This document shows positions 1 through 63,840 of a DNA stretch of 64,000 nt, in pieces (position 1 is the first letter of the stretch; each line of letters opens with the position of its first letter). This stretch comes from an uncultured Gemmatimonadaceae bacterium (GTDB taxonomy: Bacteria > Gemmatimonadota > Gemmatimonadetes > Gemmatimonadales > Gemmatimonadaceae): positions 416,001 through 480,000 of the forward strand of contig CAWHHI010000004.1 of assembly GCA_963829055.1 (NCBI GenBank). The letters run 5' to 3'. The notes under the pieces were generated by a model, which had not been told where the DNA came from, searched no databases, and worked only from the letters and a program-made list of their open reading frames with translations. A program made the position numbers and the translations under genes.

Positions 1-990
1 GAAGATCTGCGCCACGTAGTCGCGGAGCAGCTTTCGGCAGGTAGTGCGCGAGCGTAGTCGCCCGGAACCGCGTGCGTTGGCCACATCGCGACTTCGACCT
101 GCGCCGTGAACGTCGGCGTCACGTACGTCCCGTTGCGAACGAACTTCGCGTACAGCGGCGCGAGGTCCTCGGATCGAGCACCGGCCTAACGCCGTTTGTA
201 CCGTGAAGCGCGGCTGGAGCGCGACCGAATCCGCCGGCGTGCAATCGAGCCGGAATCGCGAGCAGGTGCTCGATGCTCTTCTGTCCCGAGTCGGACGCGG
301 CCGCCGACCCGACCGACGCGCGGCACGTGTCCGGCGAACACCATGCCACGCTCCCGCGCGCGCCGAGCGATCGCGAAGTACGCCTCCGCGTTGAGCTGCG
401 AGTGAACCTTGATGAAGTCCACGCCGAGCGCGACGAGCGAGTCCACTCCAACGCGCGCCTCGGCAGCGTTGCGGGCGAGCAGGTGCGGGATCGGCACGTC
501 GCCACCCTCGAGGTACGGGCCCGACGCGATTATCCGTGGGCCGACGAGCTGGCCGCGGGCGATCTCCGCCGCGCCACGTCGTGAGGGTGTCCCAGTCGCC
601 GGCCATGTCGCGCACGCCGGTCACGCCGTTGGCCACGTAGAGCGGCAGGAGCTCACGGCCGCCGGCCATCCAGCGATCGCGGTGTGCACGTGCATGTCCC
701 AGAAGCCCGGGACGAGAAATTTTCCTCGGCCGTCGATGACGCGAGCGCCCGCCGGCGCGGGAGTCGAGCGCGAGGGCCCGGCCGCGACGATACGATTGCC
801 GCGAATGACGACCGTCTGGTTAGGCACCGGCGTCGAGTCGCGACCGTCGATCACGGTGACCCCCGTGAACGCGAGCGGGGTCTGTGCGCTCGCCGACGCC
901 GCGGGCGACGCCAGCATGAGGCTGCCCGTCATCGCCGCCGCAATGCACGCCAGGGTAGCGGCCCCGATGCGGCGTTGGCTCCTCTGAGGC
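1..990 (-). CDS. Amidohydrolase family protein (frameshifted, runs off window start)
   Basis: Signal-like N-terminus, then AFTGVTVIDG...VIDGRGKFLVPGFWDMHVH (HxH metal motif); later GVDFIKVH and FAGHVP in another frame. Start approximate. Confidence 0.85.
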
Positions 991-1277
991 AAGTCGAGCG
1001 TGTTCGTCAGCAAGCTATCGATCCCCGCGTCGGGCGCAGTCAAAGTGGATGCATTGAATCGGGCGTCGCTGAGTCTATCGGCGGGACAGCACGTGCGCGA
1101 GGAACCAAGCGCGTGAATTGGTCGGCCAACCGGAACGACCTCGCTCGAAATGGCTGGTCGCGGCGGCGTCGGAGGGAGTGGTGCACCCCACCATCGACAG
1201 GGTTGCGACCGGCCTCCCGGTCGATACCACTGCCGCTGCCGTTCCGCGAGGTTACGGCGACGAGAGGGGAGGGGACC

Positions 1278-1754
1278 ATGTACACACCGGTCGAGACATA
1301 TCGCGGCTTCGTGTACCCGTGGGTCATCGACCACGTCGGGCACATGAACGTGCAGTTCTATACCGCGCGGTTCGACGAAGCGAGCTGGCAGTTTCTCGCG
1401 CAGCTCGGCCTCACGCCGGCGTTCCTGAAACGGAACGCACGCGCGGCCGTCGCCGTCGATCAGCGCACGCAGTACAAGCGGGAAGTTCTGGCGGGCACGT
1501 TGATCCACATCACCAGTGAGCTCGTCTCACTTGGTCGCACCAGCATTCGCTTCGTGCACCGCATGTTCGACAGCGAGACCCGCGAGGAAGTCGCCGTCAG
1601 TGAGCTGGTCGGCGTCTACTTCGATACCGACTGCCGGGCTGCGACGCCGCTGCCCGCCCACGTGCACGGGCGTGCCGGCGAGATGCTGACGACCAGCGCG
1701 GAGGTGTTGGTCGACTCCGGCGACGACACCGCGGAGATGGTTGCGATCGCGTGA
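1278..1754 (+). CDS. Acyl-CoA thioesterase (hotdog fold, 4HBT-like)
   Basis: VYPWVIDHVGHMNVQFY motif; G-rich RBS before the ATG at 1278. Confidence 0.85.
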   Translation: MYTPVETYRGFVYPWVIDHVGHMNVQFYTARFDEASWQFLAQLGLTPAFLKRNARAAVAVDQRTQYKREVLAGTLIHITSELVSLGRTSIRFVHRMFDSETREEVAVSELVGVYFDTDCRAATPLPAHVHGRAGEMLTTSAEVLVDSGDDTAEMVAIA

Positions 1755-1766
1755 CTTCACTACCGC

Positions 1767-2666
1767 CTAACGTGGTGTCGTCTCGGTGATGCGGTCGCGG
1801 ACGAAGTCGTCGAGGTGCGTGAGCTGTATCGGGTAGCGCCGCAGCATCTGCGCCGGATCGAACGTCTGATCCGTCGTGTCGAACACGATGCTCGCGCGCA
1901 TGACCTCGCTGATCCCTGGATGAAAGGGACCCAGCAGGGCGGACATGATTCGCAGCGTACCGAGGGAGACATGACGGAGTTTCGGCGAGCGACCGGAGAG
2001 CCGCGCATACAGGGCGGCGACCTCGTGACGGCTGAGGTTTGTCGGCCCGCCGATCTCGATGACCTCGTTCGTCGAGGTTGGGCGACTCAGTGCCATGACG
2101 GCGACCGCGGCCACGTCACGCGCCGCGACGAAGTTCGCCGGTTGTTCGCCCCTCCCGAAGATGACGGCCGGTTTTCCGTTCAGGATCGCCTTGCCTAACA
2201 ATTCGTGCGCGTGCGTCTCCATGAACGCTGTGGGGCGGAGGATCGTGTAGCGGAGGCCGCTCGCCTCGAGGTAGCGCTCCGTCTCGTATTTGCGTCGCCA
2301 GAAGCCAATCGGATGCGCGGCCGACACGCCGATCACCGACGTGTACACGAACTGACCGACGCGCTCGGATTTGGCGGCATCGATGAGTGCCCGATGTCCC
2401 GCGTCGTCGACAACGGCGGAGGCGTTCCGTCCTCTCCCGAGCAGGGCGTGGGCCGCGGCGACAACGGCGTCCGCGCCGCGTATCGCCGGTCCTAACGAGG
2501 CCGGCTCGGCGAGATCCGCGTGTCGCACCTCCGCACCGATCGCCTCGAGGTCCGCTGCTTTCGCGGGGGTGCGCGCGATGGCGATGACCTGATGACCCGT
2601 CATGAGCATCTGCCGAGTCACCTCGCGCCCTAACGATCCCGTGGCACCGACCACCGCGACCCGCAT
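1767..2666 (-). CDS. NAD(P)-dependent oxidoreductase, atypical SDR/NmrA-like
   Basis: VAVVGATGSLG Rossmann motif, YTILRPTAFM; intact 299 aa ORF. Confidence 0.9.
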   Translation of the reverse strand: MRVAVVGATGSLGREVTRQMLMTGHQVIAIARTPAKAADLEAIGAEVRHADLAEPASLGPAIRGADAVVAAAHALLGRGRNASAVVDDAGHRALIDAAKSERVGQFVYTSVIGVSAAHPIGFWRRKYETERYLEASGLRYTILRPTAFMETHAHELLGKAILNGKPAVIFGRGEQPANFVAARDVAAVAVMALSRPTSTNEVIEIGGPTNLSRHEVAALYARLSGRSPKLRHVSLGTLRIMSALLGPFHPGISEVMRASIVFDTTDQTFDPAQMLRRYPIQLTHLDDFVRDRITETTPR

Positions 2667-2678
2667 CCTCCCTCGCTG

Positions 2679-3488: not shown

Positions 3489-4913
3489 TTACTGCGACAG
3501 CGCTTTCAGCAGGTTGACGCGACCGGCGCCGTAGGCGTCGTCCGGTCCTGGAGGACCGAGGTCATCGAGCCCGTTCAGCAACAGCTGCTTGATGCGGGCC
3601 GGGTTCCTTGCCCCGTACTTCGCGATGAGTTGCGCCACGACGCCGGTCACGTGTGGTGCTGCCTGCGACGTCCCTGCGATGCCAATCGTGAAGAAGAAGC
3701 CAGGTGGCGCGTTGCAGGGAAACACGATGGTGTTGCCCGAGACCGCGGCGAGGTGATGTGCGCAGACCGAAGACACCCACCCAGCGCCCGTGCCGCCCGG
3801 CGCCGAGACGGTGATGGATTTCCGCCCCGTGTTGCTGTAGCTCGCCGGCGCATCGACGTTTGCCCACGGGCCGGAGAACGCATTCGCGCTCGCCGTCGGT
3901 CCCGTCGCCGACACGCAGATCACGTGCGGCGCCTCGCAGAAAACGGCGAGCGAGCGTCCGTTACCGTCGAGGTTGAGTGCATCGTTACCAGCGGAGACGA
4001 CGACCACCATCCCGGCCCGGTTGGCGTAGTTGAAGACCTTGTTCGTGATCCCAACGAACCCCTTACTCCCCGCCTTGTCGATTCCCCCTGAGACACCGAG
4101 GCTCATGTTTGCCACGTCCGCGCCATGATCAGCCGCCCAGATGATCCCGGCCAAAATGCCTCCCAGCGTGCCGCCGCCGTTCGCGCCGAGCACTTTGACG
4201 CCGATGAGACGCGTGCGCGAGTTGACGCCGGCGAAGATCGTTGCGTTCGACGAGACCTGCGTTGCCACGTTCGTCCCGTGCCCGTTCAGATCGTCGAGCT
4301 GATTCCGTCCCGGCAGCAGCGCGGCGATCAGCGCGTTGTCGTTGGGTACCAACGACGTCGACCGTGAGAGATCGACCATGCCGTTCATGTCGAAGCTGTC
4401 GTAGTCGATACCGGTATCGAGGATGGCGGCGGTGACGTTAGGCGACCCGAGGTTGCCGAGCGCCCACGCGGCTGGCGCGCTGATGGCGCGCATGTTCCAC
4501 TGGAAGGCGAAGCGGAACGACCCTGCCGGGTTCGCGATGCTGTTCACCGAGACATCGGCGGCGTTCAGCTCGCTGCCTGGCGTCGGCGCGCCGAGCTGCA
4601 CGGGCACGTCATCGTAGACGGCACCAACGCCGGCTTGTCGCCCGAGTGCAGCGGCGGCCTGGGCACTGAGGCCGCTGACGCCGGCGAAGCCTGCGCCGTC
4701 GGCCACGAAGTCGACCGTGCCACCTAACGCCGCAACGCGCGCCGCGAAATCAGCGCGCACGGGCCCATTTAATTCCACCACGAACCGGTTCGGGGCCGCC
4801 GCGACGGCGGCAGTTGGCGTCACCGCCCTTGCGGGGGTCGGCTGGACCGGGCTATCCGAACAGGCGGCGAGCGCGACGGTTGCTGCTGCGAACGAGAGGA
4901 CCGGTGATCGCAT
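3489..4913 (-). CDS. S8 family (subtilisin-like) serine peptidase, lipoprotein
   Basis: Catalytic motifs ILDTGI, GHGTNVA, GTSQAAPHV; lipobox LAAC; GGAGG RBS. Confidence 0.95.
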   Translation of the reverse strand: MRSPVLSFAAATVALAACSDSPVQPTPARAVTPTAAVAAAPNRFVVELNGPVRADFAARVAALGGTVDFVADGAGFAGVSGLSAQAAAALGRQAGVGAVYDDVPVQLGAPTPGSELNAADVSVNSIANPAGSFRFAFQWNMRAISAPAAWALGNLGSPNVTAAILDTGIDYDSFDMNGMVDLSRSTSLVPNDNALIAALLPGRNQLDDLNGHGTNVATQVSSNATIFAGVNSRTRLIGVKVLGANGGGTLGGILAGIIWAADHGADVANMSLGVSGGIDKAGSKGFVGITNKVFNYANRAGMVVVVSAGNDALNLDGNGRSLAVFCEAPHVICVSATGPTASANAFSGPWANVDAPASYSNTGRKSITVSAPGGTGAGWVSSVCAHHLAAVSGNTIVFPCNAPPGFFFTIGIAGTSQAAPHVTGVVAQLIAKYGARNPARIKQLLLNGLDDLGPPGPDDAYGAGRVNLLKALSQ

Positions 4914-5357
4914 GCGACTTACTCCTCCAGGTGGGGGCGCGAGAGCACTCGCGCCGCCAGGGTGACGCACGCGCACGAGCCACCGGACCCGGCTGGGCCG
5001 CCGCCGCGCGTTGCAACGTGGGCAGCACAGGATGGGCTTGTCTCACAACGCGTGTCAACGATGAGCGCTGTTACAGGCCAAACTGTTGGCTCAGCGCCAC
5101 AGCGGGGCGGATTTTAGCGGCGGCCCTTGGGAGCACGAGCCACAGCCGCCGCGGTTCGAACCGCCACCACTCCACAGTCACCTGCGTCAACCAATACAAC
5201 TGTGCTGGCGCCGACTCGAGGATACCGCCGACACGCTCGGCGCCCATCTCCCGGACATACCTAACGCGGCGCGCGCACGCGGCTGGCCGTGAATGGCCCA
5301 CCAGAATCACCGACAATGGCCCTACAGGCTGTACCGCTTGTGTCGTACCATTCTCCG

Positions 5358-5843
5358 ATGAGCTTCGACATTATCGGTACCAGATCGGTTGGCGCGCTGC
5401 TCGGGCTGCTCGCATGCGGCGCCACAGCGTGCCGTGGCGCGCAGAAGGGGACGTCGGCTTCTCCCGCGGTTGCCCCGGTGCGCCCCGCGACCGCCGCCGG
5501 CGTCGGGCCGGCGTCGTACGCTCTCACGCCGCTCGACGGATCGCGCCTAACGGCGACCGTCGTAGAGGTGCGCATCGAGCCCGGACAGCAATCGCGCGCC
5601 CATAGTCACCCGTGCCCGGTCGTCGGATACATCATCGAGGGTGCCTACCGTATGCAGGTGAGGGGTGAGGCCGAGCACGTGTACACCGCTGGCCAGACGT
5701 TCTACGAGCCCGCTAACGGCGTGCACGCCGTGTCCGCGAGCGCGAACGACAAGCCAGTCCGCTTTCTCGCCTACTTCACCTGCGATCGTCAGACGCCGCT
5801 GACCGTCCCCCCGCCCGATTCCGGACGTTCGCCTCGCGATTGA
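5358..5843 (+). CDS. Cupin domain protein (possible lipoprotein)
   Basis: HSHPCPVVGYIIEG and GQTFYEPANGVH cupin motifs. Confidence 0.85.
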   Translation: MSFDIIGTRSVGALLGLLACGATACRGAQKGTSASPAVAPVRPATAAGVGPASYALTPLDGSRLTATVVEVRIEPGQQSRAHSHPCPVVGYIIEGAYRMQVRGEAEHVYTAGQTFYEPANGVHAVSASANDKPVRFLAYFTCDRQTPLTVPPPDSGRSPRD

Positions 5844-5987: not shown

Positions 5988-6195
5988 GACAGGATGGCCA
6001 GGATTGGCAGGATTGAGAAGATGACCGCCTCGGCGTCGAGGAGCGGGTCGCCGGGGCCTAACGAATGTGGGGGACACATCTCGGGGAGCGTGGCGTCCCG
6101 AGCGGCCGTTCCCCTCATTCCGGGCTCGTTGCGGGAGGGCCCCTGCGTGCGACACGGAGCCTCTGTTCAATCCTGTCCATCCTGGCCATCCTGTC
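5988..6195. repeat. Inverted-repeat element with tandem CAGGAT(T)-type arms
   Basis: GACAGGATGGCCAGGATTGGCAGGATTG (5988-6015) is near-complementary to CAATCCTGTCCATCCTGGCCATCCTGTC (6168-6195); extra partial arm near 6369-6386. Confidence 0.8.
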
Positions 6196-6524
6196 ATGCA
6201 GTGGCCGTTGCCGTCAGCAGCCCGTGCGTGATGCGCCGTCGCGAACTGCGCCGCTCCTCCGCTCAGCCTAGCGTTCGCAGATTAGCCGCTCGGCGAGAGC
6301 AGCGTCGCGAGCAGCCGGTCCAGCCATTCTCGACTGGTGACGGGATCTCGTGGGAACGCAGAGCCGTCATCCTGCCAATCCTGTCCGGGTCTTCGCGCGA
6401 TGTTCCGAAACCTGCCAACCATCCGCTCCCCTTGCGCGTCTAAGGGACAGGCAGTCAGTTTCTCCATAGATCGGCATAGGAAGGAGGCCGACGAACCTTC
6501 TCGCCCACCGAAACGGAGACTGCC

Positions 6525-6880
6525 GTGTTCGCCAAAGAGTCCGGTCTGCTGCAAGGCACGCTCGAGCTCCTCGTACTCAAGACGCTCTCGTGGGGACCGA
6601 TGCACGGCTACGGGATCGCGAGCTGGATCGAGAGCGCGACGAGCGACGTCCTCCGCGTGGAGGAAGGGCTCGCTCTATCCCGCGCTGTACCGCATGACGC
6701 GCAAGGGTTGGATCGCCGGCAAGTGGGGCACGAGCGAGAACAACCGGCGCGCGAAGTTCTACCACCTCACGCCCGGAGGGACGGCGCCAGTTCGTCGAGC
6801 AGACGACGGGGTGGCAGCGCTTCGCCGCGGCCGTGAATCAGGCGGTGGACACGACACGAGCGCCCAGTTGGGCGCGGTGA
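6525..6880 (+). CDS. PadR family transcriptional regulator (frameshifted)
   Basis: [24 protein letters not shown], then [10 protein letters not shown]...[13 protein letters not shown] in the next frame. Confidence 0.92.
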
Positions 6881-6891
6881 CCAGAGCGACC

Positions 6892-9581
6892 ATGCGTGAG
6901 AAATTGCAGAAAGGCGACGGTGGTCGCGGCGGGCGTCCCTTCGAGCCCAAGCCACAGGTCGAAGTCGACAGCGAGCTCGCGTTCCACCTCGAGGAGCGCG
7001 TGCGCGATTACGTGGCGCGCGGCATGGACCCCGTCGCGGCACGTGCGGCGGCGCTCGAGCGCTTCGGCGACGTGACGAGCGTCCGCGACGAGTGCACGCA
7101 GCTGCTCGCGGAGGAGCGCCGCGCCGTGGCCCGTCGCGACTGGCTCGACGACCTGCGGCAGGATCTGCGGTATCGGCGTCCGCTCCGCGGTGCGCGCTCC
7201 GCTGTTCTCGCTGCTGGCGATCGTCACGCTGGCGCTCGGCATCGGCGCGAACGCCGCCGTCTTCGGCGTCGTCAAATCGGTGCTGCTGAACGCGCTGCCG
7301 TACGCGGACGCGGACCGCCTCGTGCGCGTGTATGCGCGCATGGAGGATGGGACTATGGAACGGTCCTCCATGAGCGCCGGCGCGATCACGGACTTCAGTG
7401 CGCGACAGCGCTCGTTCTCGCGCGTCGCCCCATTCTACCGTGAGAACGTTCGACGTCACGTACGCGGCCGACGGCGGCCCGCGCGTCATCAGCGCGACGC
7501 TGGTCGGAGCGGGCTTCTTCCAGACCCTCGGCGTGTCCGGCGCTCCGAGGGCGCCTGCTGCGCGACGAGGACATGAAGACCGGCGCGCCTGACGTCGTCA
7601 TGCTGAGTTGGGCTGCATGGCAGCGTGAGTTCGGCGGCGACCCACGCGCGGTCGGGAAGTCGATGCGCATCGACGGCGAGGCGCAGGAGATCGTCGGCGT
7701 CCTGCCACGCGGATTCGTCGGGCCGAATGGGTGCGGCGGACCTCTGGTTTCCGCTCGATCTCGGACCGGCGCTCCGCGACCCTGTTCGCGCGCGCAAGCA
7801 ACACTGGCTCAGTCTCGTCGGGCCGGCTCGCGCCTAACGCCACCGTCGCGTTCGGCACAGCGCGAGATCGCGGCCATCGGCACGGACCTCGCGCGCGAGC
7901 ATCCCGAGGCGCAGGGCGGCATGGCGCTCCGAGGCTTCCCATTGCGCGACGACATGGTCGGCGAGACGCGCACGCCACTGCTCGTGCTCATGGCGAGCGC
8001 CGGCCTCGTGCTCGTGATCACGTGCGCCAACCTCGCCGGCGCTCTGCTGTCCCGCTCGTTGAGTCGGCGCAAGGAGTTCGCCGTTCGCATCGCGCTCGGC
8101 GCCGGGCGCGGAGCCGACTCGTCAGGCAGCTGTTGACCGAGAGTCTCGTCCTCGCGCTCGCCGGTGGCGGCGTCGGACTGCTGCTCGCCATGGCTCGGAC
8201 TCGCGGCCGTGCGCTCGCTCGCGTCGACGGCGCTTGCCCGCATACGCGGAGCTGTCGCTGGACCCGGTGGCCGTTGCGGTGACCGGCCTGCTCGCCCTCG
8301 TCACGGGTGTCGCGTTCGGCGTCGCGCCAGCAGCTGGCTGCCGGCCGCGCCAACACGCAGGGAACGCTGCGCGACGAAACGCGCGGCGCGAGCGAGAGCC
8401 GCCGCACGCGACGACTCCGCGGCCTGCTCGTCGCCGGGCAGATCGCGCTGTGCGTGAGCCTGCTCGCTGGCGCGGGCCTGCTCGTTCGCAGTCTGTGGAC
8501 GATGGCCACGGCGCCGCTCGGATTCGACCCGCATGGCGTGCTCACGATCGCCGTGCAGTTACCGGGGCGGACGTATACGTCGACGCCGGCACGCGCCGCG
8601 ATTCTTCGAGCAGTTCGAGCAGCGCGCTGCGCGCGATTCCCGGCGTGCGCGACGTGGCGGACGTGAGCGAGCTGCCGACGCCGAACATGAATCGCAACGG
8701 GCTGACGATCGAGGGCCTGACGTGGCCTGCTGGCGAGGGACAGCCGTTCATCGCGTCCGAGATCGTGTCCGACGACTACTTCCGCACGATGCGCATTCCG
8801 CTTCGAAGCGGGCGTACCTTCGGCCCGGCTGACCGGGACAGCACGCAGCGGGTAGTCGTGATCAGCGAGGCGATGGCGCGTCGGTACTGGCCTAACGGGA
8901 ACGCCGTCGGCGCCCGTATCCGTATGGGACCGGCCGAGGTGGCGCCGTGGGCACAGGTGATCGGCATCGTGGGCGACGTGCGCACTGACCCCGCGCGTCC
9001 CGTCCCGGAGCCGATGACGTACACGTCGAGCCGGCAGGACGCGTGGGGAGCCCGGACGCTCCTGATACGAACCGACGGCGATCCCCTCGCGCTCGTGAAG
9101 CCGGTGCAGCGCGAGTTGACGGCACTCGACGCGTCGATTCCCATCCGACGCCGCGGCGCCGATGGAAACCTTGCTCGCCGATCAGCTTGCGGGTCGTCGC
9201 CTGCCGGTGGTGCTCATGATGGCGTTCGGTGTCCTGGCGCTGCTGCTCGCGTCGGTGGGCGTGTACGCGATGTTCGCGAGCATGGCGGCGGCGAGGGAGC
9301 GCGAGTTCGGCGTCCGGGTGGCACTCGGCTCGAGCCGAGGCGCGATCGCGGGGCTGGTGCTGAGGCAGGGTGGCGTCTGGATGATTGCCGGCCTGGTCGC
9401 GGGGGCAGTGGGTGTGGTGCTGGTCGCGCGCGGTCTCGGCGGGCTGCTGTACGGCGTGACGCCGTTCGACCCGATCGCGTTAGGCGTCGCCGGCACGACG
9501 CTCATCGTGTCCGCGGTGGTGGCGCTGCTGGTTCCGGTGCGTCGCGCGACGCGGGTGGATCCGGTGAGTGTATTGCGGTAG
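6892..9581 (+). CDS. ADOP-type duplicated ABC/MacB-like permease (frameshifted)
   Basis: [69 protein letters not shown]; follows PadR as is typical. Confidence 0.92.
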
Positions 9582-9775: not shown

Positions 9776-9861
9776 CGCCCGCCGAGCCTATCGACAAACC
9801 CCGTGTCTTCCGTCGATAATGCGTCGGTACCGCTTTGTTCTCTTCAGCCCCGACGCCCCAG

Positions 9862-12754
9862 ATGTACTTCGCGCTCCTGCTCGTCGCCCTGCAGCAGCCC
9901 GCCGCCGATCCGAGCCTTCGTGGTGTTCGCGACCCCGCGTTCGCGCCCGATGGACGGCTCGCCGTGTCCGTCGATGGCGATCTCTACGTCCAGGCCGCCG
10001 GTCGTGGCGCCTGGACACGGACTCACCAGCGGCCCCGCCTGGGACCGCGAGCCCGTCTGGTCGCGAGACGGCACCAGCATCGTCTTCTCCTCCGACCGCG
10101 CCGGCAGACTTCGATCTCTGGCGCGCTCGCCGTCCCGGCAGCGGCCTCGGCTCGCCACGTCCGCCGCAGCCCGAGCGCCTCACGACGTCGCCCGAGCCCG
10201 ATGCGCAGCCGTCCGTCGCCACCGATGGCCGCATCATCTTCGTGCGCGGACGCGGTGCCCTCGCCCGCCTCTGGGTGCGCGCGCCCGATGGAAGCGAGCG
10301 GCGCCTAACGCGCGGACAGGTCGCCGAGCGGTCGCCCGCCGTGTCGCCGGACGGAGCGCGCGTCGCGTATGTCGCCGTCACGGAGACCGGACGACCGCCT
10401 GCGCGTACGCGTGCTCGCCGACACGTCCGCGCGTCCGGCGACAGCGTCGTCGTGGCGAGACCGCGATGTCGAGCGGCCCGCATGGGCGCCTAACGGCGAG
10501 CGCCTCGCGTTCACGACCGGCGGCGCGCGTCCCGGCGTCTTCATCACGCCGACGGACGGCCGCTACGTCGAACCTCGTGAGCGCGCGCCACGCCGCGCCG
10601 GCCTGGGCGCCCGACGGGCGCACGATCGCGCTGGCGGAGCTCGGCGCCGATCCGCCGGGGTACAATGGCGATCCCGCGCGCGTCGCGGATCGACGATGTG
10701 TCCGAAGATCTCGAGCGCGACTGGACGCCTCTGGACCGTCGCCGTCCCGACCGCGCCCGATGACGGCCTCGTCGAGCGTCGCGTCACCGCCGACTCGGTC
10801 GCGACAGGAACGGAACGCCGAGGCGTTCGATCGAGTCTGGACGCGATCCGCCGAGCTGTACTTCGCGACACCGGAAGCCGCGTCGCGTCGCCAGCGCTGG
10901 ACCGCGCTGCGCGATCGGTACCGGCCGCAGGCGCTCTGCCGCGGCGACCGACGCCGCGCTCGACGACGTCATCTACGCCATGCTGCGCGAGCGGCCGCCA
11001 CTTCGCGAGGCCGCGACCGGGCGTGCCGCCGTGTCGAGCGCGCATCCGGTCGCCACGGCCGCGGGGCTCGAGATCCTGCGCAAGGGCGGCAACGTCGTCG
11101 ACGCCGCGGTCGCCGTCTCGTTCGCGTTAGGTGTCGTCGAGCCGGATGCCAGTGGCCCGGGCGGCTACGGCCAGATGATCATCCAGCTCAAAGGGCGCAG
11201 AGCGCCCGGCGCTCATCGAGTTCATGTCGCGCGTTCCCGAGGAAGCGACGCTCGCGAACGCGGCGCTCATGACGGAGGGCCGCTATCCGTCCGACGGCCC
11301 CGTCCTCGCGAACGTACCGGGCACCGTCGCCGGCATGCACTCCGCGTGGCGTCAGTTCGGCAGCAAGAAGGTGCCGTGGGCCGACCTCCTCGCGCCGGCG
11401 ATTCGCGCGGCGAAGGACGGCTACGTCGTGAGCGAAGGGTTGGCGACGACGCTCACCGTCGAGCGCGAGCACTTCTGCGAAGTACGAGTCGAGCAAGGCG
11501 CTGTTCTTCCGCAACGGCGAGCCGCTGCACGCAGGCGACACGCTCCGCAATCCGGACCTCGCGTGGACGCTCGAGCAGGTCGCGAAGGGCGGCGCTGACG
11601 GTTTCTACGCGGGCGAAGTCGCGCGACGCATGGTCGCCGACCTGCGCGGGAAGGGCAACGCGATGCGGCTCACCGATCTCGCGCGCTACTACGCCGCCGA
11701 TCGTGAGCCCGTGAGCTCCACGTTCCGGGGCTACACGCTCTACTCCAGCGCGCCGCCGGTCTCGGGCGGGGCGACACTCGCTGCGCAGCTCAACCTGCTC
11801 GAGCAGTGGAAGACGCCGCGTCTCTACACGGACGACGCCGCGACCGCGCACGCGATGATCGCCGCATGGCAGCTCACGCCGACGACGCGCAACCGCATCG
11901 CCGATCCCGGGCTCTGGCCGGTGACCGTGGAGCCGCTCGTGAACAAGGACACGGCTCGCGTCCGCTGGCGCTGCTTCGACGCCGCCCACGCGCTCACGCC
12001 GTCGAGCTTTCGCGGCGACACGCTGGTGTGCGCCACTGATCGCAAGGCTACGACCGACGGCGGCGCCGACGACAATGCGAGCGGAAGCGAGCTCGCGCTC
12101 GAGGAAGGGCGCGCCTGCGGGAACCCGGCGGAGCACGCGCGTGAGGTCGTCGCCTGTCACTCGTCAGGCACGACGGCGTTCACCGTCGCCGATGCGGACG
12201 GCAACGTCGTCGCTGTGACGCAGACGCTCGGCACGTGGGGCGGAAATTTCTACGTCTCACCCGGGCTCGGCTTCATTTACAACGACAAGCTCACGTCCTA
12301 CGGCACCGACCCCACGCAGTACGGCGCTCGGCTCCCCTACGCTCGGCACGGCAGTACGCTCGCGCCCACGATCGTCTTTCAGGGTACCGGCAGTGCGCGA
12401 CGCCCGGTGCTCGCGGTCGGTGCCGCGGGGAACGCCTGGATCACGTCGGCGGTGTACGAGACGCTCGTCGGCGTCCTCGACTTCGGTCTCACCCCGCAGC
12501 AGGCGCTCGAGCTGCCGCGCTTTCTCCCGTCGGGCCGCGGCGCCGGGTCACGCCGCGAGTTCGTCATCGACGTGGAGGGTGGGTTCGCGCCGTCCGCCAT
12601 GCGGCGACTGCGCGAGATGGGCTATAACCTGAACGTGATCTCGCTCGAGGGCGAGCCGCGCATGGGGTATGGCGCGGCGATCACGTTAGGCAAGGGCACC
12701 GTCACGGCTGGCGCCGACCCGCGTCGGAGCGGCGCGGCCGGAGCTGTTCCATGA
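9862..12754 (+). CDS. Gamma-glutamyltransferase family protein with N-terminal PD40/TolB-like propeller (frameshifted)
   Basis: PD40 repeats ([29 protein letters not shown]); GGT motifs [31 protein letters not shown] (nucleophile Thr), GADPRRSG. Confidence 0.88.
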
Positions 12755-13737: not shown

Positions 13738-13739
13738 CG

Positions 13740-14741: not shown

Positions 14742-14761
14742 CGACCGCCTGCTGCTCGAGG

Positions 14762-42309: not shown

Positions 42310-42410
42310 GTGATCTCCGGACGAGGGGATCGGGCGGGTTGGATCGACGGCCACTCGCACGGTGCACCAGCGCCCCTAACGACGGAATGAACGAAGTCCG
42401 GGTCACAATT

Positions 42411-51551: not shown

Positions 51552-51559
51552 GCCACCGT

Positions 51560-51686: not shown

Positions 51687-51687
51687 T

Positions 51688-54796: not shown

Positions 54797-54798
54797 GG

Positions 54799-55440
54799 TC
54801 AGCTCCGCGGAGCCTTCGCGGGCGTGCGTGAGTCACCACCGAGTCGCGTTGCCATCTCGGAGAATACGCTGACGATGGCGGAGACGTCGGTCTTGTCGGT
54901 GCGGAGCGAGGCGACTTCGCGATTGAGATCGCTCGTGACGCGCTGCGAGAGTCGTTCGATCTCGGCGGTGATGGCGCGCGACTGCTGCATGATCTGATCG
55001 CGAATTTCCGCATCGGCCATGCCGGTGAGCTCTTCGAGCTTCACGTGCCGCTTCTCGAGTGAACGCAGCACTTCCTTGAGCTCGGCCGACAGCGCTTTGA
55101 GCTCCTCGGTGCGCTTCGTCCGCTCGGCGACGAGTCGCTCGCCGAGCACCTCGGCTTCGTGCTTGGCGCTGGCGTCGACCTCGGCGAGTTGCTGCGAGAA
55201 GTCGGTGCGCATGGACGCCTGCTCGCGCATGAGGCGCTCCTCGAGCCCTTGCAGGCGCGACTCGACGGCGCGCATCTGTCCGCCGAACAGGATGTCTCGG
55301 ACCTTGTCGAGACTCTCGGGCGCGGTGTCGTTAGGCGGAAGGTCCGCTGGGCGAGTCACCGCCATCACCACCGGCGCCGGCGCGGCTGGCGCCGGAGTAG
55401 TCCGCCCGTTTCCGGGACGGTTGTTCTCGATCCTGGCCAT
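54799..55440 (-). CDS. Coiled-coil hypothetical protein
   Basis: SLDKVRDILFGGQMR followed by a long E/R/L-rich heptad region. Confidence 0.85.
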   Translation of the reverse strand: MARIENNRPGNGRTTPAPAAPAPVVMAVTRPADLPPNDTAPESLDKVRDILFGGQMRAVESRLQGLEERLMREQASMRTDFSQQLAEVDASAKHEAEVLGERLVAERTKRTEELKALSAELKEVLRSLEKRHVKLEELTGMADAEIRDQIMQQSRAITAEIERLSQRVTSDLNREVASLRTDKTDVSAIVSVFSEMATRLGGDSRTPAKAPRS

Positions 55441-55711: not shown

Positions 55712-57760
55712 CTACTGGGCCACCGGCTTCAGGTATCGGTCGTACCACTTCAGGTATCGATCCAGCCGATCCACCCGATAGCTCGGCAGGGTGATCCCGT
55801 GGAAAGAGTTCGGGTAGATCACGAGCTGCGTGTCGATTCCCAGTGACTTGAGCGCCTGATACATCTGCTCGCTGCCGGCCGTGGGGACGTTGAAGTCCTT
55901 CTCGCCGCTCATGAACAGCGTTGGAGTCTTGATGCGGTCGGCGTGGAAGAACGGATACGAGACTTTCATCCAGGCGTCCGGGTTCTTCCACGGGGCGCCG
56001 AGCTCGGTCTCGTACTGCAGGATGTACTGATCCACGCCGTACATGGACGTCTGCAGCGCGCTTCCGGCGCCGCTGATGGCCGCCTTGAAGCGCGGCGTGG
56101 TTGCGATCGTGTAGTCCGTCGTGATCCCGCCGTAACTCCAGCCGCCGATGCCCAACCGGTCCGGGTCGGCGATGCCCTTCGAGATGACGTAATCGGTCGC
56201 GGCGAGGACATCGATCACTTCCTTGTTTCCCCAGTCGCCGGAGATGGCGTTCATGAACTTCTCGCCGCGGCCGTTGCTACCACGGTAGTTCGGCGACACA
56301 ACGACGTAGCCGTTGGCGGCGAACAGCTCACGCTCGAAGTTGAACGAGTACTGATCCTGCCCGGTCGGACCACCGTGGATCCGCAACAGCGTCGGCATCT
56401 TGCCGCTCGAGCCCGCGGGGCGCGTCACCACGGCGTGCACGTCGGCGCCGTCCGGCGTCTTGAACTCGATGCCTTCGGTGGTGCCGAGCTGAATCTCCGA
56501 AAGCCACTCGTCGTTCTGGTGCGAGAGCGGCCGGAGCGTGCCGTTCTCCAGGGCGTGAATTTCCGGCATCTCGGTCGACGTCGATGCGAGAACGGCGAGC
56601 TTGCCCGCCCGGGCCCATGGAGACGTTCGAGACCACGCGTGGTCCATTCGTGAGCTTCTCGACCGGGCCGCCTGTCGCCTTGATGCGCGCGACGTACTGC
56701 GTGCGATCGTCGGTCACAATGAAGAGCAGGGAAGCGCCATCGGCCGTCCAACGTGGAGACGTCACGGGCCGATCGAGCGATTCGGTGAGGAGGCGTGGCT
56801 CGCCACCGGCCGCCGGAATCACGGCGACGCGATACTGGTCGTAGATGGACATCGTCTTCGACCCACCGCGAACGTACGCGATCGACTTTCCGTCCGGGCT
56901 CCACGCCAGCTTGCTGCCGCTGTTGTTGTCGTCGCCCTCGAACATCGTTAGGCGTCGCATCTCCGCGCCCGGGACGTGCGTCGATCACATAGATGTCCGC
57001 GTTGATGCTGCGATCGGGATCCGGCGAGCGGTCGCTGACGAAGGCGATCATCTTCCCGTCCGGCGACCACGACGGGTTGGACTCGTCATACTTGCCCGCC
57101 GTGAGCACTTCCGACTTCTTCGCCGCGACGTCGAACAGGTACAGGTGGCTGCGCTGGTTGCCGAGGTAGCCCTGGATGTCCTGCTTGAAGTGGTAGCGAT
57201 CGAGGACGATCGGCTTCGGTGCCTTCGCCTTCGTGGAGTCAGCGGTGCTGGCGGTATCTTCGGGGTCGTCGACGCTGAGGACGAGGCGCGTGCCGTCGGG
57301 CGACCATTCGTAGGCGCTGACGCCGCCCTTGATCTCGGTGAGACGCGTGGCCTCGCCACCGCGGCGATCGAGTAGCCAGACCTGGCCGCCCTTGCCGCCG
57401 TCGCGCGATGAGATGAAGGAGAGGTAGCGGCCGTCGGGACTCCACCGCGGCTGGCTCTCGCCGTCCTTGGTGGACGTGATGCGCAGATTCTCCTTGCCGT
57501 CCCAACTGGCCATCCACACGTCGGTGTCGTTCTTGTCGCGTGCGGAATCGGCCACGGTGACGGTGTAGGCGACCCACTTGCCATCAGGCGAGATCTGCGG
57601 GTCGCGAACATCGCGGACGCGGAAGATGTCGGTGGCGCGGAGCGGCCGCTTGGCGGCGCGCCGGGCGCGAGGCGTTAGGCGTGGTGGGCGACGTCCTCGG
57701 CCCCTGGGCGATGGCGGCGCTCGCGGCGGCGGTGACAGCGATGACTGACAGAATGCGCAT
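55712..57760 (-). CDS. S9 family peptidase (prolyl oligopeptidase/acylaminoacyl peptidase, frameshifted)
   Basis: PD40 repeats; IHGGP, NYRGS, GWSYGG, GEKDFNV, FHG. Confidence 0.95.
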
Positions 57761-57821: not shown

Positions 57822-58274
57822 TCATGCGTTAGGTGGCACGACCGCGGTGGCTTCGATCTCGATTTCGGCGCCGGGCTCGAGCAGCGTCGAGACGACGACG
57901 ACGGACATGGCAGGGTAGTGGCGGCCGAAGATCTCGCGGTATGCGGCCCCGATCGCTCGCGCTCGCGGAGGTACGCTTCGCGACCTGTGACGAACCAGGT
58001 GAGCCTGACGAGATGTGCGGGCTCGGCGCCAGCCGGCGGCGAGCACGGGCCACGATATTCACGAACGCCTGACGCGCCTGCGCGGCCATGCCACCCGTCG
58101 ACGACGCGCTCGGTGATGGGATTCCACCCGATCTGCCCGGACAGGAACAGCGTGCGCCCTTCGGCGGAGACGGCGTGAGAGTAGCCCGAGCCGCGTGGCC
58201 ATCCGTCGGGAATCGGGAATCGGGAATCGGGAATCGGGCGCGGGATCGATCTCCTCGGTGGGCTCCTCGCTCAT
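57822..58274 (-). CDS. RidA/YjgF family protein (frameshifted)
   Basis: [40 protein letters not shown]. Confidence 0.88.
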
Positions 58275-60013
58275 GGCGCCTCCCGATGGGCGTCGTTCCG
58301 CGCGACTGCGTCTTCGATTCCCGATTCCCGCCGCCCGGTTCGCCGGGCCCCGCCGATTCCCGATGTTCCCGCAAACGAAATCTCTGCAACTTCCCCGTGT
58401 CGGTTCTCGGCAGCTTCTCCACGAACTCGATCCGTCGCGGGTACTTGTACGGCGCGATCTCGGCCTTCACGAAATCCTGCAGCTCGCGGGCGAGCTCGGG
58501 GGTGGCGGCGCACCCCGGCGCGCACGACAATGAATGCCTTCACGACGTGACCGCGGTCCTCGTCAGGCGCGGCGACGACGCCGCACTCCTGCACCGCGCG
58601 ATGCTCCAGCAGCACGTTCTCGACCTCCGCGCCCGACACGTTGTGTCCGCCCGTAATGATCATGTCGTCCGTGCGCGCGACGTACCAGAAGTAGCCCTCG
58701 TCGTCCTGACGGAACGAGTCGCCGGTGACGTTCCAGCCGTTCTCGACGTAGCCGCGCTGACGCTCGAGATCGCGCGAGGTAGCGGCAGCCGGTCGGACCG
58801 CGGACCGCGAGCCGACCGATCTCGCCACGCGGTACCTCGGAGCCGGTCTCGTCGACGCAACGTGCCTCGTACCCGGGCACCACGCGACCCGTCGATCCCG
58901 GGCGAATGTCGTCGCCGCTGGCCGAGATGAAAATGTGCAGCATCTCCGTCGCGCCGATGCCGTCGATGATGCGCATGCCCGTCGCCTTTTCCCACGCCTC
59001 GAACGTCGCGCGCGGCAGATGCTCACCGGCGGACACGCATTTCGTGAGCGACGAGATGTCGTACCGGTCGAGCATGCCGAGCATCGCGCGATAGGCCGTC
59101 GGCGACGTCCAGCAGACGGTCGGCCGTGCTCGTGAATGCCGTCGATGAGCTGCGGCGGCGCGGCCTGCTCGAGCAGAAGCGACGCTGCGCCCACGTCGCA
59201 TCGGGAACAGCACGAGCCCGCCGAGACCGAACGTGAACGCGAACGGCGGCGACCCGCAGCAGAATGTCGTCGGCGAGACAGCTTCGCCACCGACCGCGGG
59301 AAAGCAGTCGCAGATCGCCAGCACGTCGCGATGAAAGTGCATCGTGCCCTTCGCGTTGCCGGTCGTGCCTGACGTGAACGCGATGAGCACGGTGTCGTCC
59401 GCGGCGGTGTCGCAGTTCGCGAACGTCGCGGGCTTACCGACCATCATCGTCTCGAGCGAGCCGGGCATCGTTGGACGCGAAGTGAACGGTGCGTCCACCC
59501 GGTCGCGGCGCGCCCGCGCTCGTCTGACCTCATCGCGGTCTCGCACTCCGGCGCGAACCGCGCGTCGCATAACGCGAGCGAGATCTCCGCCTTGTCCGCG
59601 ATGTACGTCAGCTCGCGCACGCGCAGCAACGGCATCGTGCACACGACCACCGCGCCGACCTTCACGATCGCGAACCAGCACGCGACCATCATCGGCGAGT
59701 TCGGACCGCGCAGCAGCACGCGATTGCCGGGAACGACGCCCAGGTCGTCGACGAGCACGTGGGCGATGCGGTTCGACATCTCGAGCACGTCGCGATACGT
59801 CCAGCGTCCGCCGGGGAAGAGAAACGCCGTGCGGTCGCCGTCGCCTGCTTCCACCATGCGGTCGAGCAGCTCGGTCGCGCAGTTGAGCTGTGACGGGTAT
59901 GCGAGCTCGGGCAGCGACGCCGAAATCCATCGCGGCCACAGATCGGCCGGCGGCAGCTGGTCGCGGCAGAACGTGTCGACGTGCGCGGACACGCCGTGGG
60001 GCGCGTTAGGCAT
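58271..60013 (-). CDS. Benzoate/2-aminobenzoate-CoA ligase family protein (frameshifted)
   Basis: [63 protein letters not shown]. Confidence 0.92.
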
Positions 60014-61353: not shown

Positions 61354-61354
61354 G

Positions 61355-62194
61355 CTACTCGCCCGTGAACGCGGGTGTCGACGCGGTTCGCGAACGCGCG
61401 ATAGGCGCGCACGAAGTCATCGGTCTGCATGCAGATCGCCTGCGTCTGCGCCTCGGCCTCGATCGCCTCGTCGATTCCCATGTTCCATTCGTGGTGCAGC
61501 GCCTTCTTCGTCATCGCGTGCGCGAACGTTGGGCCCTCGGCCAGCGATTGCGCTAGCGCTCCGGCCTGTTCGGCGAGCTGTCTGCCGGGTCGACGAGGCG
61601 ATTGTAGAAGCCCCACCGCTCCGCTTCCGCACCGTCCATGAAGCGGCCGGTGTACAGCAGCTCCGACGCGCGTCCGTGGCCGATCACGCGCGGCAGGAGC
61701 GCGCATGCGCCCATGTCGGCGCCGCTCAGACCGACGCGCGAGAACAGGAACGCGACCTTGCTGCGCGACGTGCCGAGGCGCATGTCGCTTGCCAGCGCGA
61801 TAGCCGCGCCGGCACCGGCGCAGACGCCGTCGATGGCGGCGACGATGGGCTGCGGGCAATGACGCATGGCCTTCACGAGGTCGCCCGTCATCCGGGTGAA
61901 CGCCAGGATGTCGCCCGTTCGCCCGGACTCCTTCATCTGCACGAGCGGTCCAATGATCTCGTGCACGTCGCCGCCTGACGAGAAGTTTTCGCCGGCGCCG
62001 GTGACAATCACCGCGCGCACGTCGGTGACGTAGGAGAGGACGCGAAACGTCTCGGTGAGCTCGCCGTACGACTCGAACGTCAGCGGGTTCTTTCGCTCGG
62101 GCCGGTTCAGCGTGATGGTGGCGACGCGACCGGCGAGGTCCCAGCGAAAGTGGCGGGGACGAATGGTGGTGACGTCGATGCCGATCGGGGACAT
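61355..62194 (-). CDS. Enoyl-CoA hydratase/isomerase family protein (frameshifted)
   Basis: [39 protein letters not shown]. Confidence 0.93.
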
Positions 62195-62327
62195 TGAGTG
62201 TCGAGGTGTACCACGGTCGCGGTGAAGTTCAGGGCACTTACGGACGGTCGAGTGTAAGAGTCTAGCTGGCGACGCTCCCGTCGCGTAGGGTGTCGCGAGC
62301 GCGCGAGAATCCATTCGGGCGAGGGCC

Positions 62328-63797
62328 ATGCAGCTGATGGTGCGGGTTGCAACAATGCTGTCCGTCGTCATCGCGGCACACGCGCTGAGCGCGCAGGGTC
62401 CGCGGTCGACGGCCTCCGCGACCGGGATCGAAACCATCATCACGCGGCGTCGTGTTCGACAGTCTCGCCAATGCGCGGTCTCGCCGGCGCGACCGTGCAG
62501 ATCGCCGGATGCGACCGGAAAGGCGTGGACGAGCACCAAGGAAACCGACGGAACGGCCGCTTCGAGTTCGCCGACGTTCCCATCGGCACGTACCTGCTCG
62601 GGTTCTTTCACCCGAAGCTCGATTCGCTCGCGCTCTCGAGCCGACGTGCTGCGCGTGGACGTCCGGACGCGAGCAGCCGATGCGTCGTGCGGCTCGGCGA
62701 TCCCATCGGCGCGGACGATCGTCGCGTTCGATCTGCGGTGCGAAATCGGTCACCGATTCGACGGGCCTCTTCCTGGGGTACGTTCGCGGCGCGGACAACC
62801 TCAATGCCGCGCCCGAATGGCGTCGTAAGCGTTCGGTGGACCGAGATCGTCATCGAGAAGAAGTCGATTCGCTCGCGAGCTTCCGAGCGCGAATGCGTCG
62901 ACCGGACCAACGGGGCTGTACGCGATGTGTGGCATCCCCGCTGTCGACGCCGATCGTGCTTCAGGCCGCGAGTGAGGCCGACAGCAGCGGATCGTTCGAG
63001 GTCACCGTGCCCGCGACCGGCCTGCTACCATCGCGATGTGTTCGTCGCTCCGTTCACGCGCACGAAGGTGGCGATATCGGACTCGGCGCCGGCAGTGGAG
63101 CTGCTCCGCGGGCACGGGGCGGTTCGCGGCCGCGTGATCGGAACGAATGGTCGTCCGGTCGCAGGCGCGCGTGTGATGGTGTGGGGCACCGGCCTCGAGA
63201 CGGCAACCGATGGCGACGGCGAGTTCGCGCTCCAGCGGTCTTCCGGGCGGCACGCACACGCTCGAGGCACGCGCGGTGGGGTTCATGCCTGCGCGGACGC
63301 CGGTCGACATCGTGCAGGGGACGCCGGGCGCGACGGAGGTCGAGCTCACGAATTTCGGCATCACGCTCGACACGGTGCGAGTGTTCGGCGCAGCGCCTGT
63401 ACACGTCGAGGCGTGAGGCGGACTTCGAGCGACGTGTGCAGACGGGCACCGGCCACCTGATCGACGAGAAGGAGATCGAGAAGCGAAAGCCGATGGTCCT
63501 GACGGATCTGCTTCGCAACGTGCCCGGCGTGATGATCCTGCCGGACCAGCACTCGTGGGACGTCGCGTACATGCGTGGAGGGCAGAGCGTCCTCGGGAGC
63601 GGTCTCTGTCGCCCGGATCTCATGGTCGACGGCATTCGCGTCGCGAATGACGAATGTTCCCGCTCAACTCCATGGTGTCGACGACGGAGATTCGCGCGGT
63701 GGAGGTGTACGCCCACTCTGCCATGGTCCCGGCCGATCTCGCGTCCGCCAGCGGGTGCGGAGTGATCGTGATCTGGACGGGGGCGCGACGGAAGTAG
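62328..63797 (+). CDS. Carboxypeptidase regulatory-like repeat protein with C-terminal plug-like domain (frameshifted)
   Basis: [37 protein letters not shown], ends CGVIVIWT; no barrel. Confidence 0.8.
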
Positions 63798-63840
63798 CGG
63801 CGGCCAGTTTGCGAGCAACGTTAGGTATTCCGCAGTACGT

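Follow-up and report, generated by a model that had tools for sequence, protein, structure and literature searches.

A non-palindromic octamer, (G/A)CCTAACG, kept in thousands of copies by soil bacteria of two unrelated phyla: a possible uptake-sequence-like signal

Why should a soil bacterium of the Gemmatimonadaceae carry one short word 38 times in 64 kb? In the window, i.e. the whole 64-kb stretch of DNA analysed here, the initial annotation had counted 38 exact copies of CCTAACG or its complement CGTTAGG and proposed a maintained, non-palindromic, genome-wide signal that protein sequence does not explain. The count is exact, with 22 copies on the plus and 16 on the minus strand, and all 31 coordinates that it listed match. 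Its chance estimate of about 7 copies was too high: the mean over 100 dinucleotide shuffles is 2.76, and none of them reached 38, the largest value being 9. The heptamer is over-represented as claimed, but the word is really an octamer, (G>A)CCTAACG: genome-wide, the base in front is G in 78% and A in 13% of copies.

The excess holds for the whole genome: its 20 contigs, none without the word, total 7.78 Mb and carry 6,391 copies, where an order-2 Markov model expects 249. The called coding sequence of this genome (G000) contains 3,694 copies against 212 under synonymous codon shuffling (maximum 244 in 20 shuffles), a 17-fold excess. The same null gives 28-fold in the closed genome G305 (400 kb covered) and 24-fold in G419 (1.58 of 3.2 Mb covered). 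Each of six other genomes of the host genus has 2,501-5,112 copies of GCCTAACG, a Gemmatirosa kalamazoonensis plasmid has 801 in 1.106 Mb, and a dialect, GCCTAACGA, is found in a subset of the Chthoniobacterales (Verrucomicrobiota). The core is strict and the flanks are graded, with most internal one-off variants at their expected frequency and the flanks flat past one or two bases. Thousands of evenly spread copies are kept, in some soil bacteria of two unrelated phyla, despite a rare-codon cost: 60% of TTA codons fall inside the word (the initial annotation had proposed to measure this for TTA and CTA). PN[ADEGV] tripeptides are 1.46-2.07 times as frequent as their reverses and PN[RLST] tripeptides 0.69-0.82 times, and such a tripeptide signature is reported for uptake sequences in PMC2817400. 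Our search of the literature found no description of the word.

A base-calling artefact, the initial annotation's own caveat, is excluded by three lines of evidence. A metagenome contig of independent origin, L469, matches positions 6,088-17,726 of the window at 96% identity and retains all 9 copies there; copies are also spanned by near-identical contigs of other runs, in which other letters are few (e.g. one in 773 bases); and congener genomes carry the word. The positions are also conserved. The retention rate of word sites is 62% over pairwise comparisons at 70-78% identity among 23 close metagenome loci and the window, pairs that are not independent of one another. The synonymous word CCGAACG reaches 31%, 7-mers as a whole 15% and other TTA/TAA words 4%. 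Losses tend to be made good nearby: 38% of lost sites have a new one no more than 300 bp away, compared with 8% of kept sites. Copies arise by substitution in aligned codons, mostly without indels. Inserted repeats (REP, MITE or CRISPR) were considered and rejected, as shared longer flanks and insertion footprints are missing and gains and losses occur by substitution.

In the window itself, the copy at 185..191 (+) has no counterpart in the aligned region of any of four congeners. The reverse of 1766..1772 (+) provides the TAG stop of an NAD(P)-binding gene (1767..2666, minus strand), within which lie 2491..2497 (+) and 2629..2635 (+). A subtilase gene hosts 4436..4442 (-), in a Pro-Asn frame and kept in G005 and G002, and 4723..4729 (+), in a TTA-Gly frame. 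Congeners lack 7833..7839 (+) and have their own sites 245-292 bp off, and instead of 8891..8897 (+) three of them have a site 39-40 bp off. The copy at 9478..9484 (-) uses TTA and is kept in three of four congeners; 10304..10310 (+) is kept in L469, 10489..10495 (+) in L469 and G005, and 11125..11131 (-) in G001, G002 and G014, a genome from another genus. All three aligned congeners keep 12684..12690 (-), in a gamma-glutamyltranspeptidase gene. Two copies provide TAA stops, 13733..13739 (+) for the ORF 12751..13737 and 14737..14743 (+) for an AstE/AspA-like gene (13740..14741). All four congeners keep 17843..17849 (+) and all four lack 19153..19159 (-), while 20829..20835 (-) is kept in G005 and G001. 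An Omp85-domain gene carries 21176..21182 (+), a PBP ORF (28228..29487) ends in 29482..29488 (-), 32871..32877 (-) is in a Pro-Asn frame, 56946..56952 (-) is in an S9 peptidase region and 57827..57833 (-) is at the end of the ORF 57829..58530 (minus strand). Further exact matches are at 5260..5266, 5546..5552, 6057..6063, 30962..30968, 31541..31547 and 34165..34171 on the plus strand, and at 31975..31981, 40043..40049, 40632..40638, 57673..57679, 60004..60010 and 63819..63825 on the minus strand.

The initial annotation also saw no copies at about 22.1-29.4 and 42.4-55.3 kb, and both stretches are indeed empty, from 22,060 to 29,481 and from 42,382 to 55,328. The first, 7.4 kb long with 22053..22059 (+) at its left edge, is compatible with chance (13 such gaps in the genome, 13.4 expected). 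The second is a 12.9-kb desert between 42375..42381 (+) and 55329..55335 (-). Its genes are native and syntenic (lysine aminomutase, ATP-grasp ligases, ThyX, FAD oxidase, PP2C, small GTPase and OmpA), and four congeners have 0, 1, 1 and 1 copies there (8.3-12 kb aligned).

Neighbouring copies repel each other. Within genes, the density of pairs is 0.09 below 50 bp and reaches 1 by 400-600 bp in both orientations, against values near 1 at all these distances for a control word. The depletion follows 1-exp(-d/277 bp). This repulsion reaches about 280 bp whichever way the copies face, a number that, given so clean an exponential law, every mechanism must explain. In G419 the repulsion is weak (0.55-0.81 at 25-200 bp and 1.18 below 25 bp). 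Convergent intergenic gaps have 1.54 copies/kb and divergent gaps 0.51/kb. In 143 kb of foreign-looking contig ends there are 7 copies, none occurs in eleven genes of translation and transcription (rps, rpl, rpoA, nusG and tuf), and two 10-kb windows over rRNA regions, flanks included, have 2 and 8. There is one copy each in comEC and dprA and none in recA.

Our best reading, held tentatively and a little short of an even chance, is that (G/A)CCTAACG is an undescribed uptake-sequence-like signal. The word would act as duplex DNA, with some component of the competence machinery preferring fragments that carry it. Such fragments would recombine in more often, and for this reason point mutations that create the word would spread and be kept. 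Upkeep would be by molecular drive, by selection for self DNA or by both, against the cost of rare codons and amino-acid changes. The benefit would thus lie in uptake or recombination, and a putative receptor for the word is predicted. If a single site per fragment suffices, a second would pay only when a break separates the two, which would account for the observed form of the depletion; on this meaning of the 277-bp scale, the law would imply short substrates of a few hundred bases. PMC7811141 reports that two close USS give uptake no higher than one.

Several features of DUS and USS recur here, namely copy number on both strands, conservation with tripeptide enrichment, scarcity in foreign or constrained DNA, and competence genes. 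A facing-pair analysis of copies found no inverted pairs acting as terminators, which are common in DUS/USS and not essential. ComEC is present in all 40 motif-rich genomes, and DprA passes E<=0.001 in 39 of them, in one case weakly; a ComEA-like gene occurs in all five genomes searched for it, and G000 encodes a set of type IV pilins. Motif-poor genomes are equally equipped (ComEC in 35/36, DprA in 36/36), which counts against the uptake reading. Our search for a reader protein or receptor found none. One orphan pilin, of three, was profiled as a shared reader and rejected as genus-specific, and the pilins of G000 and of the covered half of G419 have no similarity beyond the N-terminal helix. 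Other differences from known uptake sequences also weigh against this reading, among them the lack of terminator pairs. Cross-phylum one-to-one genes are poorer in copies (0.51-0.64/kb vs 0.73-0.83/kb), which may count too, Neisseria DUS being enriched in the core genome (PMC2397512). The frame seen most often calls on the rare TTA codon, while known uptake sequences lean towards preferred codons; they are also family-specific, whereas the word is common to two phyla. The weak repulsion in G419 is a further point against it, and drive alone does not explain a native 12.9-kb desert that persists across congeners.

A possible, if rather unlikely, alternative is a putative abundant cytoplasmic protein that binds the duplex with a reach of a few hundred bases, as a nucleoid organiser, a spreading clamp or a self-mark against a resident nuclease. 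Selection would then be for genome coverage, with sites avoided where the protein would hinder transcription. The orientation-independent repulsion and the local compensation of lost sites favour such a protein, as do the equal density on the chromosome and megaplasmid-size replicons and the low copy numbers in divergent promoter gaps, genes with ribosomal-type codons and conserved deserts (window-level rho -0.35). A true phage (terminase, portal, holin and repressor) with 20 copies in 15.2 kb, on both strands and mostly GCCTAACGA, also fits, but it is the only one of 63 viral loci of at least 8 kb that is dense on both strands, with three more at low counts. Against the protein, there is no helical or kilobase periodicity below 1.2 kb, and mutation is not locally lowered, since sequence next to sites diverges about 1.0 times as much as the average. 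Of 1,309 G419 proteins, from half of that genome, 654 have a G000 homologue, and none of these emerged as a shared DNA-binding candidate.

The integron suggests a variant of the uptake reading. The attC R''/R' consensus is RYYYAAC / GTTRRRY, and attC-like hairpins beside intI in the host's order most often end in GCCTAACG(A); attC boxes and dispersed copies also share the minor variants ACCTAACG and GCCTAACA. In competent soil bacteria of the two phyla, a candidate uptake receptor tuned to this terminal box might harvest environmental gene cassettes, and the resulting bias might have driven the word through their own genomes. We consider this improbable. If true, it would account for unrelated lineages having arrived at one sequence, known uptake sequences being arbitrary and family-specific. 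Conversely, cassettes may have adopted the watermark so as to be taken up. The attC-box identity, the 280-bp repulsion and the second phylum all lay beyond the sight of the initial annotation.

Methylation, by our estimate quite improbable, would make the word the target of a persistent type IIG adenine methyltransferase, whose mark is beneficial through methyl-dependent uptake or repair, as proposed for HIP1. Type IIG enzymes read asymmetric 6-7-mers with a penultimate A, and GCCTAAC fits. G000 has one candidate, an Eco57I/type IIG-like N6-methyltransferase gene (about 1,066 aa; C8:73.5-76.8 kb, broken by frameshifts in the assembly) with a TaqI-C-like specificity domain. Its best 120 homologues, several of them named as Gemmatimonadaceae, are 53-99% identical and conserved through that domain, but the examined half of G419 has none. 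A C5 methyltransferase occurs in 0 of 12 strongly motif-rich Gemmatimonadaceae, and the graded flanks and lineage dialects are easier to reconcile with a binding site than with the strict site of an enzyme. The SMRT methylome of that G. kalamazoonensis strain lists only RGATCY, ATGCAC and CCAGN7TCA (PMC3974934); the word is unlisted despite the 801 copies on the strain's plasmid, and ATGCAC already suits a type IIG enzyme.

Very unlikely is a non-polar Chi-like site that tunes an AddAB/RecBCD-type nuclease at random double-strand breaks. G000 and G419 have an AddAB-like nuclease pair, and non-polarised Chi candidates are discussed for Vibrio in PMC8022716. However, the strand bias between replichores that the initial annotation suggested checking was not found: across the dif-anchored skew switch, on the contig with dif, 449 of 854 copies have one orientation (53%, p=0.14). 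Opposite-orientation pairs repel as strongly as same-orientation pairs, where a directional signal predicts otherwise, and the nuclease family has no match in G014 and a weak one in the complete G305. Among the analogies first proposed, an uptake-sequence-like signal or a DNA-binding-protein site fits best, and Chi and methylation are disfavoured. The word is not a palindrome of the HIP1 type.

Least credible is that an integron integrase, or a domesticated one, produced or targets the copies, as insertion scars or secondary sites: the word equals the attC terminal box and G000 has an IntI-like gene whose catalytic Lys and His positions look altered when compared by eye with the consensus, but copies arise by in-codon substitution, facing attC-like pairs show no excess in G000, IntI is found in 22/28 and 9/12 motif-rich vs 16/18 and 11/18 motif-poor genomes and not in G419, G002, G004 and G014 gave no match to the altered integrase, and the dif arms do not contain the word.

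Sequence-tagged uptake is established mainly in two host-associated families, the Neisseriaceae and the Pasteurellaceae, and HIP1 is, to our knowledge, the sole comparable enigma. A third genome-shaping signal, common to abundant soil lineages of different phyla and matching the integron cassette box, would bring soil into the range of sequence-biased gene flow. Since the word is present in a cultured type strain, the question is directly testable. The word can also serve as a one-line binning and chimera check for such genomes, and in constructs it might aid the transformation of a phylum with few genetic tools.

Compared with known systems, Chi and KOPS are likewise asymmetric octamers over-represented genome-wide. 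KOPS are oriented with replication. Chi is too (PMC8022716); the word is not. The attC R''/R' boxes are paired, in the arrays of G025 and G027 and beside intI, and close a hairpin of 55-140 nt in cassette arrays, whereas the copies dispersed in the genome stand alone, unpaired and within codons, and have no link to intI. HIP1 (GCGATCGC) of cyanobacteria is, like the word, a hyper-abundant octamer conserved beyond codon needs; as described in PMC5861425 and PMC13756078, its function was long unknown and is now proposed to be that of an uptake watermark, and it is palindromic, methylated by DmtA/DmtC and nearly phylum-wide. The word is asymmetric (GCCTAACG differs from its own reverse complement), patchy and unlisted in the one methylome available. 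It differs from DUS and USS in its unrelated sequence, its lack of terminator pairs and of an AT-rich flank, and its strong 280-bp repulsion. Like the Neisseriaceae DUS, with its ComP receptor, and the Pasteurellaceae USS, it is short, non-palindromic and present about once per 1-1.5 kb on both strands, and it shares with them, as described in PMC2817400, PMC2397512, PMC7811141 and PMC3630211, a location inside genes, tripeptide enrichment, dialects round a shared core and scarcity in new DNA and constrained genes, while for scarcity in rRNA, also a trait of theirs, its own picture is mixed.

The heptamer CCTAACG, read on either strand, is a real and strongly maintained genome-wide signal in two soil lineages. 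We found exactly 38 copies in the window, counting both strands, against 2.76 in dinucleotide shuffles, which agrees with the initial annotation in the total and in all 31 coordinates that it listed. Across the whole genome (7.78 Mb in 20 contigs) we counted 6,391 copies, compared with 249 under an order-2 Markov model, at 0.64-1.09 per kb on each contig. The full octamer, GCCTAACG, is the most over-represented octamer of the genome (5,004 versus 102). The hexamer CCTAAC is strict, preceded by G or A and followed mostly by G. Enrichment extends to the minor variants ACCTAACG, GCCTAACA and GCATAACG, and most other one-off variants lie near expectation; internal ones mostly have observed-to-expected ratios of 0.7-1.3 under a masked order-4 model, which rules out a conversion ratchet depleting near-matches.

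Since the assembly is rich in frameshifts, the question of a base-calling artefact mattered. The EF-G gene (window 37494-39610) is broken across several frames, and relative to L469, an independent metagenome contig 96% identical to window 6,088-17,726, the window carries 80 surplus bases and lacks 10: insertion and deletion errors are frequent in the assembly. An artefact is ruled out by L469, which keeps 9 of 9 copies, as well as by near-identical contigs from other runs and by other genomes.

The placement of the genome in the Gemmatimonadaceae fits its RecA, which by eye resembles those of Gemmatimonadota, the Gemmatimonadaceae names of homologues of one of its proteins, and the many named Gemmatimonadaceae among the listed matches of a triple-motif scan across species genomes. 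That scan returned at least 127 loci. Among the matches listed, dispersed copies belong to Gemmatimonadales and Chthoniobacterales/Verrucomicrobiae, the rest being attC-like arrays and repeats of a tandem or CRISPR-like kind; two other candidates failed at the genome-wide count. We call a genome motif-rich if it has at least 150 copies of GCCTAACG. This applies to 15 of 40 chosen relatives, among them all six congeners, and to 21 of 400 Gemmatimonadota. The three families of Gemmatimonadales contribute 14/93, 7/166 and 0/5, and genomes outside the order 0/136; these tallies take in four unpublished genomes, all motif-poor (G013, G086, G125 and G204). One genus is split, with 3,479-4,141 copies in G241, G298 and G402 against 66 in G294. 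The Gemmatirosa kalamazoonensis plasmid NZ_CP007129 (1.106 Mb) carries 801 copies of CCTAACG versus 38 of the reversed control. A quick tree of 66 GGT homologues needs three changes of the trait, and a single origin is still compatible with it. Other dialects were not found in 3-47 kb samples of 14 motif-poor relatives, which are too small to reveal weak words.

In Chthoniobacterales (Verrucomicrobiota) 15 of 150 genomes reach the threshold, and none of 250 sampled across the whole phylum does. G419, one of the 15, carries 4,562 in its 3.2 Mb. The form of the word in this order is GCCTAACGA: in half of the G419 genome, A is the base after 2,404 of 2,547 copies. Viral scans, which selected by the pattern itself, gave one dense phage (IMG/VR contig L278, with terminase, portal, holin and repressor); its 20 copies in 15.2 kb are mostly GCCTAACGA, several at gene ends, and its host is presumably a motif-rich member of Chthoniobacterales. 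One bin of Acidobacteriota, G570, has just 70 copies; a single contig (C114, L208) carries most of these and is probably a motif-rich contig that was misbinned. In cyanobacteria, Haliangium, Leptospira and a Nitrosopumilaceae bin, GCCTAACGG occurs as a short hairpin within CRISPR-like repeats of 72-bp period (L117, L122, L130, L118 and others), which are apparently unrelated to the dispersed word.

The proposal that protein sequence does not explain the word stands. Called genes, which cover 65% of the genome, contain 3,694 copies; synonymous shuffling that preserves amino acids and codon totals, though not codon-pair bias, leaves 212. Copies fall in all four stop-free frames (xCG-TTA-GGx 1,465, CCT-AAC-Gxx 1,062, CTA-ACG 705 and GTT-AGG 462). 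The use of rare codons and TAA stops was likewise confirmed: the word encloses 60% of TTA codons and 61.5% of PN[VADEG] tripeptides, and among stop codons 220 of 687 TAA and 173 of 1,409 TAG. PN[ADEGV] occur at 1.46-2.07 times the frequency of their reverses, and PN[RLST] below theirs. In 400 kb of a closed motif-rich genome, G305, there are 178 copies versus 6.3 shuffled, and 76% of TTA codons lie in the word. A tRNA scan of our genome gave one tRNA-Leu(taa) for the TTA codons, most of which are in the motif, together with a predicted tRNA-Pro (anticodon agg) and a selenocysteine tRNA.

The sites are also conserved in relatives, as anticipated. Across five relatives, 18 of 43 cases show the site kept. 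We also compared the window and 23 close metagenome loci in pairs, which represent one region and are non-independent. At 70-78% identity 62% of these comparisons retain the site (15% for all 7-mers, 31% for CCGAACG), and at 86-92% identity 93% do (42% and 57%, respectively). Gain and loss occur mostly by substitution within aligned codons. Codon or peptide bias as the cause is ruled out by the shuffling null and by this conservation relative to control words.

Copies mutually avoid one another, pair density rising from 0.27 below 75 bp to about 1 at 350-600 bp; minor variants are likewise repelled and control words are not. Intragenic spacing fits 1-exp(-d/277 ± 16 bp) (chi-square 30.6, 30 degrees of freedom), a form that beats linear and Gaussian alternatives and holds for both orientations. 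Of 654 comparisons in which a relative had lost a site, 38% show a new one within 300 bp; beside kept sites the share is 8% of 1,422. Repulsion in G419 is weak. Local shielding from mutation is rejected, flank divergence being about 1.0 and not lowered beside sites. Neither short periodicity nor, in our genome, facing pairs of copies were found. The suggested Chi-type orientation to replication did not hold up: across a skew anchored by a dif-like site (C16:560.8 kb, where the GC skew peaks, with a xerD-like gene about 20 kb away) 449 of 854 copies point one way.

Convergent gaps carry more copies than divergent ones (1.54 versus 0.51 per kb; 7.4 versus 2.1 in G419). Genes with atypical GC at fourfold sites realize fewer sites, and the word is absent from eleven genes of translation and transcription. 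The two copy-free gaps of the window first reported differ in kind, as the 7.4-kb gap is within chance and the 12.9-kb gap is a native desert common to four congeners. Four foreign-looking contig ends (C19:1-10000, C11:1-45000, C6:1-55000 and C6:590000-623330) have 7 copies in 143 kb and resemble joined foreign DNA; the motif flags chimeric assembly. The C19 piece (GC 0.55) matches Chthoniobacterales genes, and the C11 and C6 ends look alphaproteobacterial and acidobacterial by eye. Window 15950-16080 and 5990-6200 hold palindromic repeats of the TGTCATCCCGAG type (12-mer 382 times in the genome), resembling hairpin repeats that PMC11893778 links to Ssn nucleases; beside them is a second repeat type with AGGATTG arms.

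The word also matches the end box of integron attC sites, a match noticed post hoc. In G027 and G025, two relatives poor in the motif, the attC sites of cassette arrays open with GCCTAACG; these arrays were found via the motif. At loci picked by integrase homology, 10 of the hairpins listed were judged credible by eye; six of them have GCCTAACGA at one end and the remaining four ACCTAACG, GTCTAACG, ACATAACG or GCCTAACA. In Acidobacteriota arrays the octamer sits at the opposite end. Integrases do not track the presence of the trait. For Vibrio cholerae, PMC12614218 documents that cassettes can be captured from transformed DNA. Our genome has an open IntI-like gene with changed catalytic Lys and His positions (L010:1429-2406, C20:208008-208985), an attC-like site directly downstream and relatives 56-63% identical in G001 and G003, as well as a truncated second intI (C4:2.9 kb).

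If the benefit levels off over some 280 bp, is blind to orientation and outweighs codon cost, a reader that binds duplex DNA seems likely. We tentatively favour, by analogy, an uptake-sequence-like signal. Uptake of short fragments would predict the exponential form, and PMC7811141 reports that a second close USS adds no uptake; the proteome, amelioration and dialect signatures also match known uptake sequences. However, no receptor was found, competence genes do not separate rich from poor genomes, density is lower in universal genes, the 12.9-kb desert is conserved and a rare codon is used. The next most likely reading is a coating or protective cytoplasmic protein that binds the word. Methylation is improbable: the sole methylome of a motif-rich strain, G. 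kalamazoonensis, omits the word (PMC3974934), and a C5 enzyme was found in none of 12 rich Gemmatimonadaceae. In its favour, the genome encodes an Eco57I/type IIG-like adenine methyltransferase of about 1,066 aa (C8:73500-76800; L562, P0001), followed by a helicase-like gene, conserved with its specificity domain in many Gemmatimonadaceae and possibly a persistent orphan enzyme of the family. The absence of a PF02384 match for N6-methyltransferases is a false negative from frameshifts, which may also affect the PF01555 search. The methylome supplements of PMC4752239 contain neither the motif nor a Gemmatimonadota strain.

As readers we rejected the altered IntI-like gene and IntI in general, the orphan pilin L467, C5 methyltransferases, Xer/dif arms, radical SAM TIGR03916 (missing from G014 of another genus, the g46 genomes and G419), and a secreted nuclease-fold protein common to our genome and G419, which lies on the foreign piece C19:1-10 kb and occurs in 0 of 45 other Gemmatimonadota. 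The comparison with G419 covered 1.58 of 3.2 Mb, and a shared reader may sit in the remaining half. L394 (G419:C15) fuses a ComEA-like helix-hairpin-helix domain to a secreted domain that by eye resembles a staphylococcal-type nuclease. L415:17872-18630 encodes a secreted protein that matches no Pfam family and shows a PD-(D/E)xK pattern like that of restriction endonucleases; among Chthoniobacterales it is present in 12 of 12 genomes rich in the motif and in 8 of 18 poor in it.

Four spellings of the word, searched as whole words in the literature outside subscription papers and bioRxiv supplements, gave one unrelated match. Among the matches listed, no description of it turned up when the taxa were searched together with terms for motifs, methylation or uptake, or when attC was linked to uptake sequences. 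The word is apparently an undescribed signal, present in two lineages of soil bacteria, whose copies follow a sharp spacing law. In mode of action it may be likened to the uptake sequences of Neisseriaceae (DUS) and Pasteurellaceae (USS) and to HIP1, but it belongs to neither group, being unrelated to all of them in sequence and, unlike HIP1, not palindromic.
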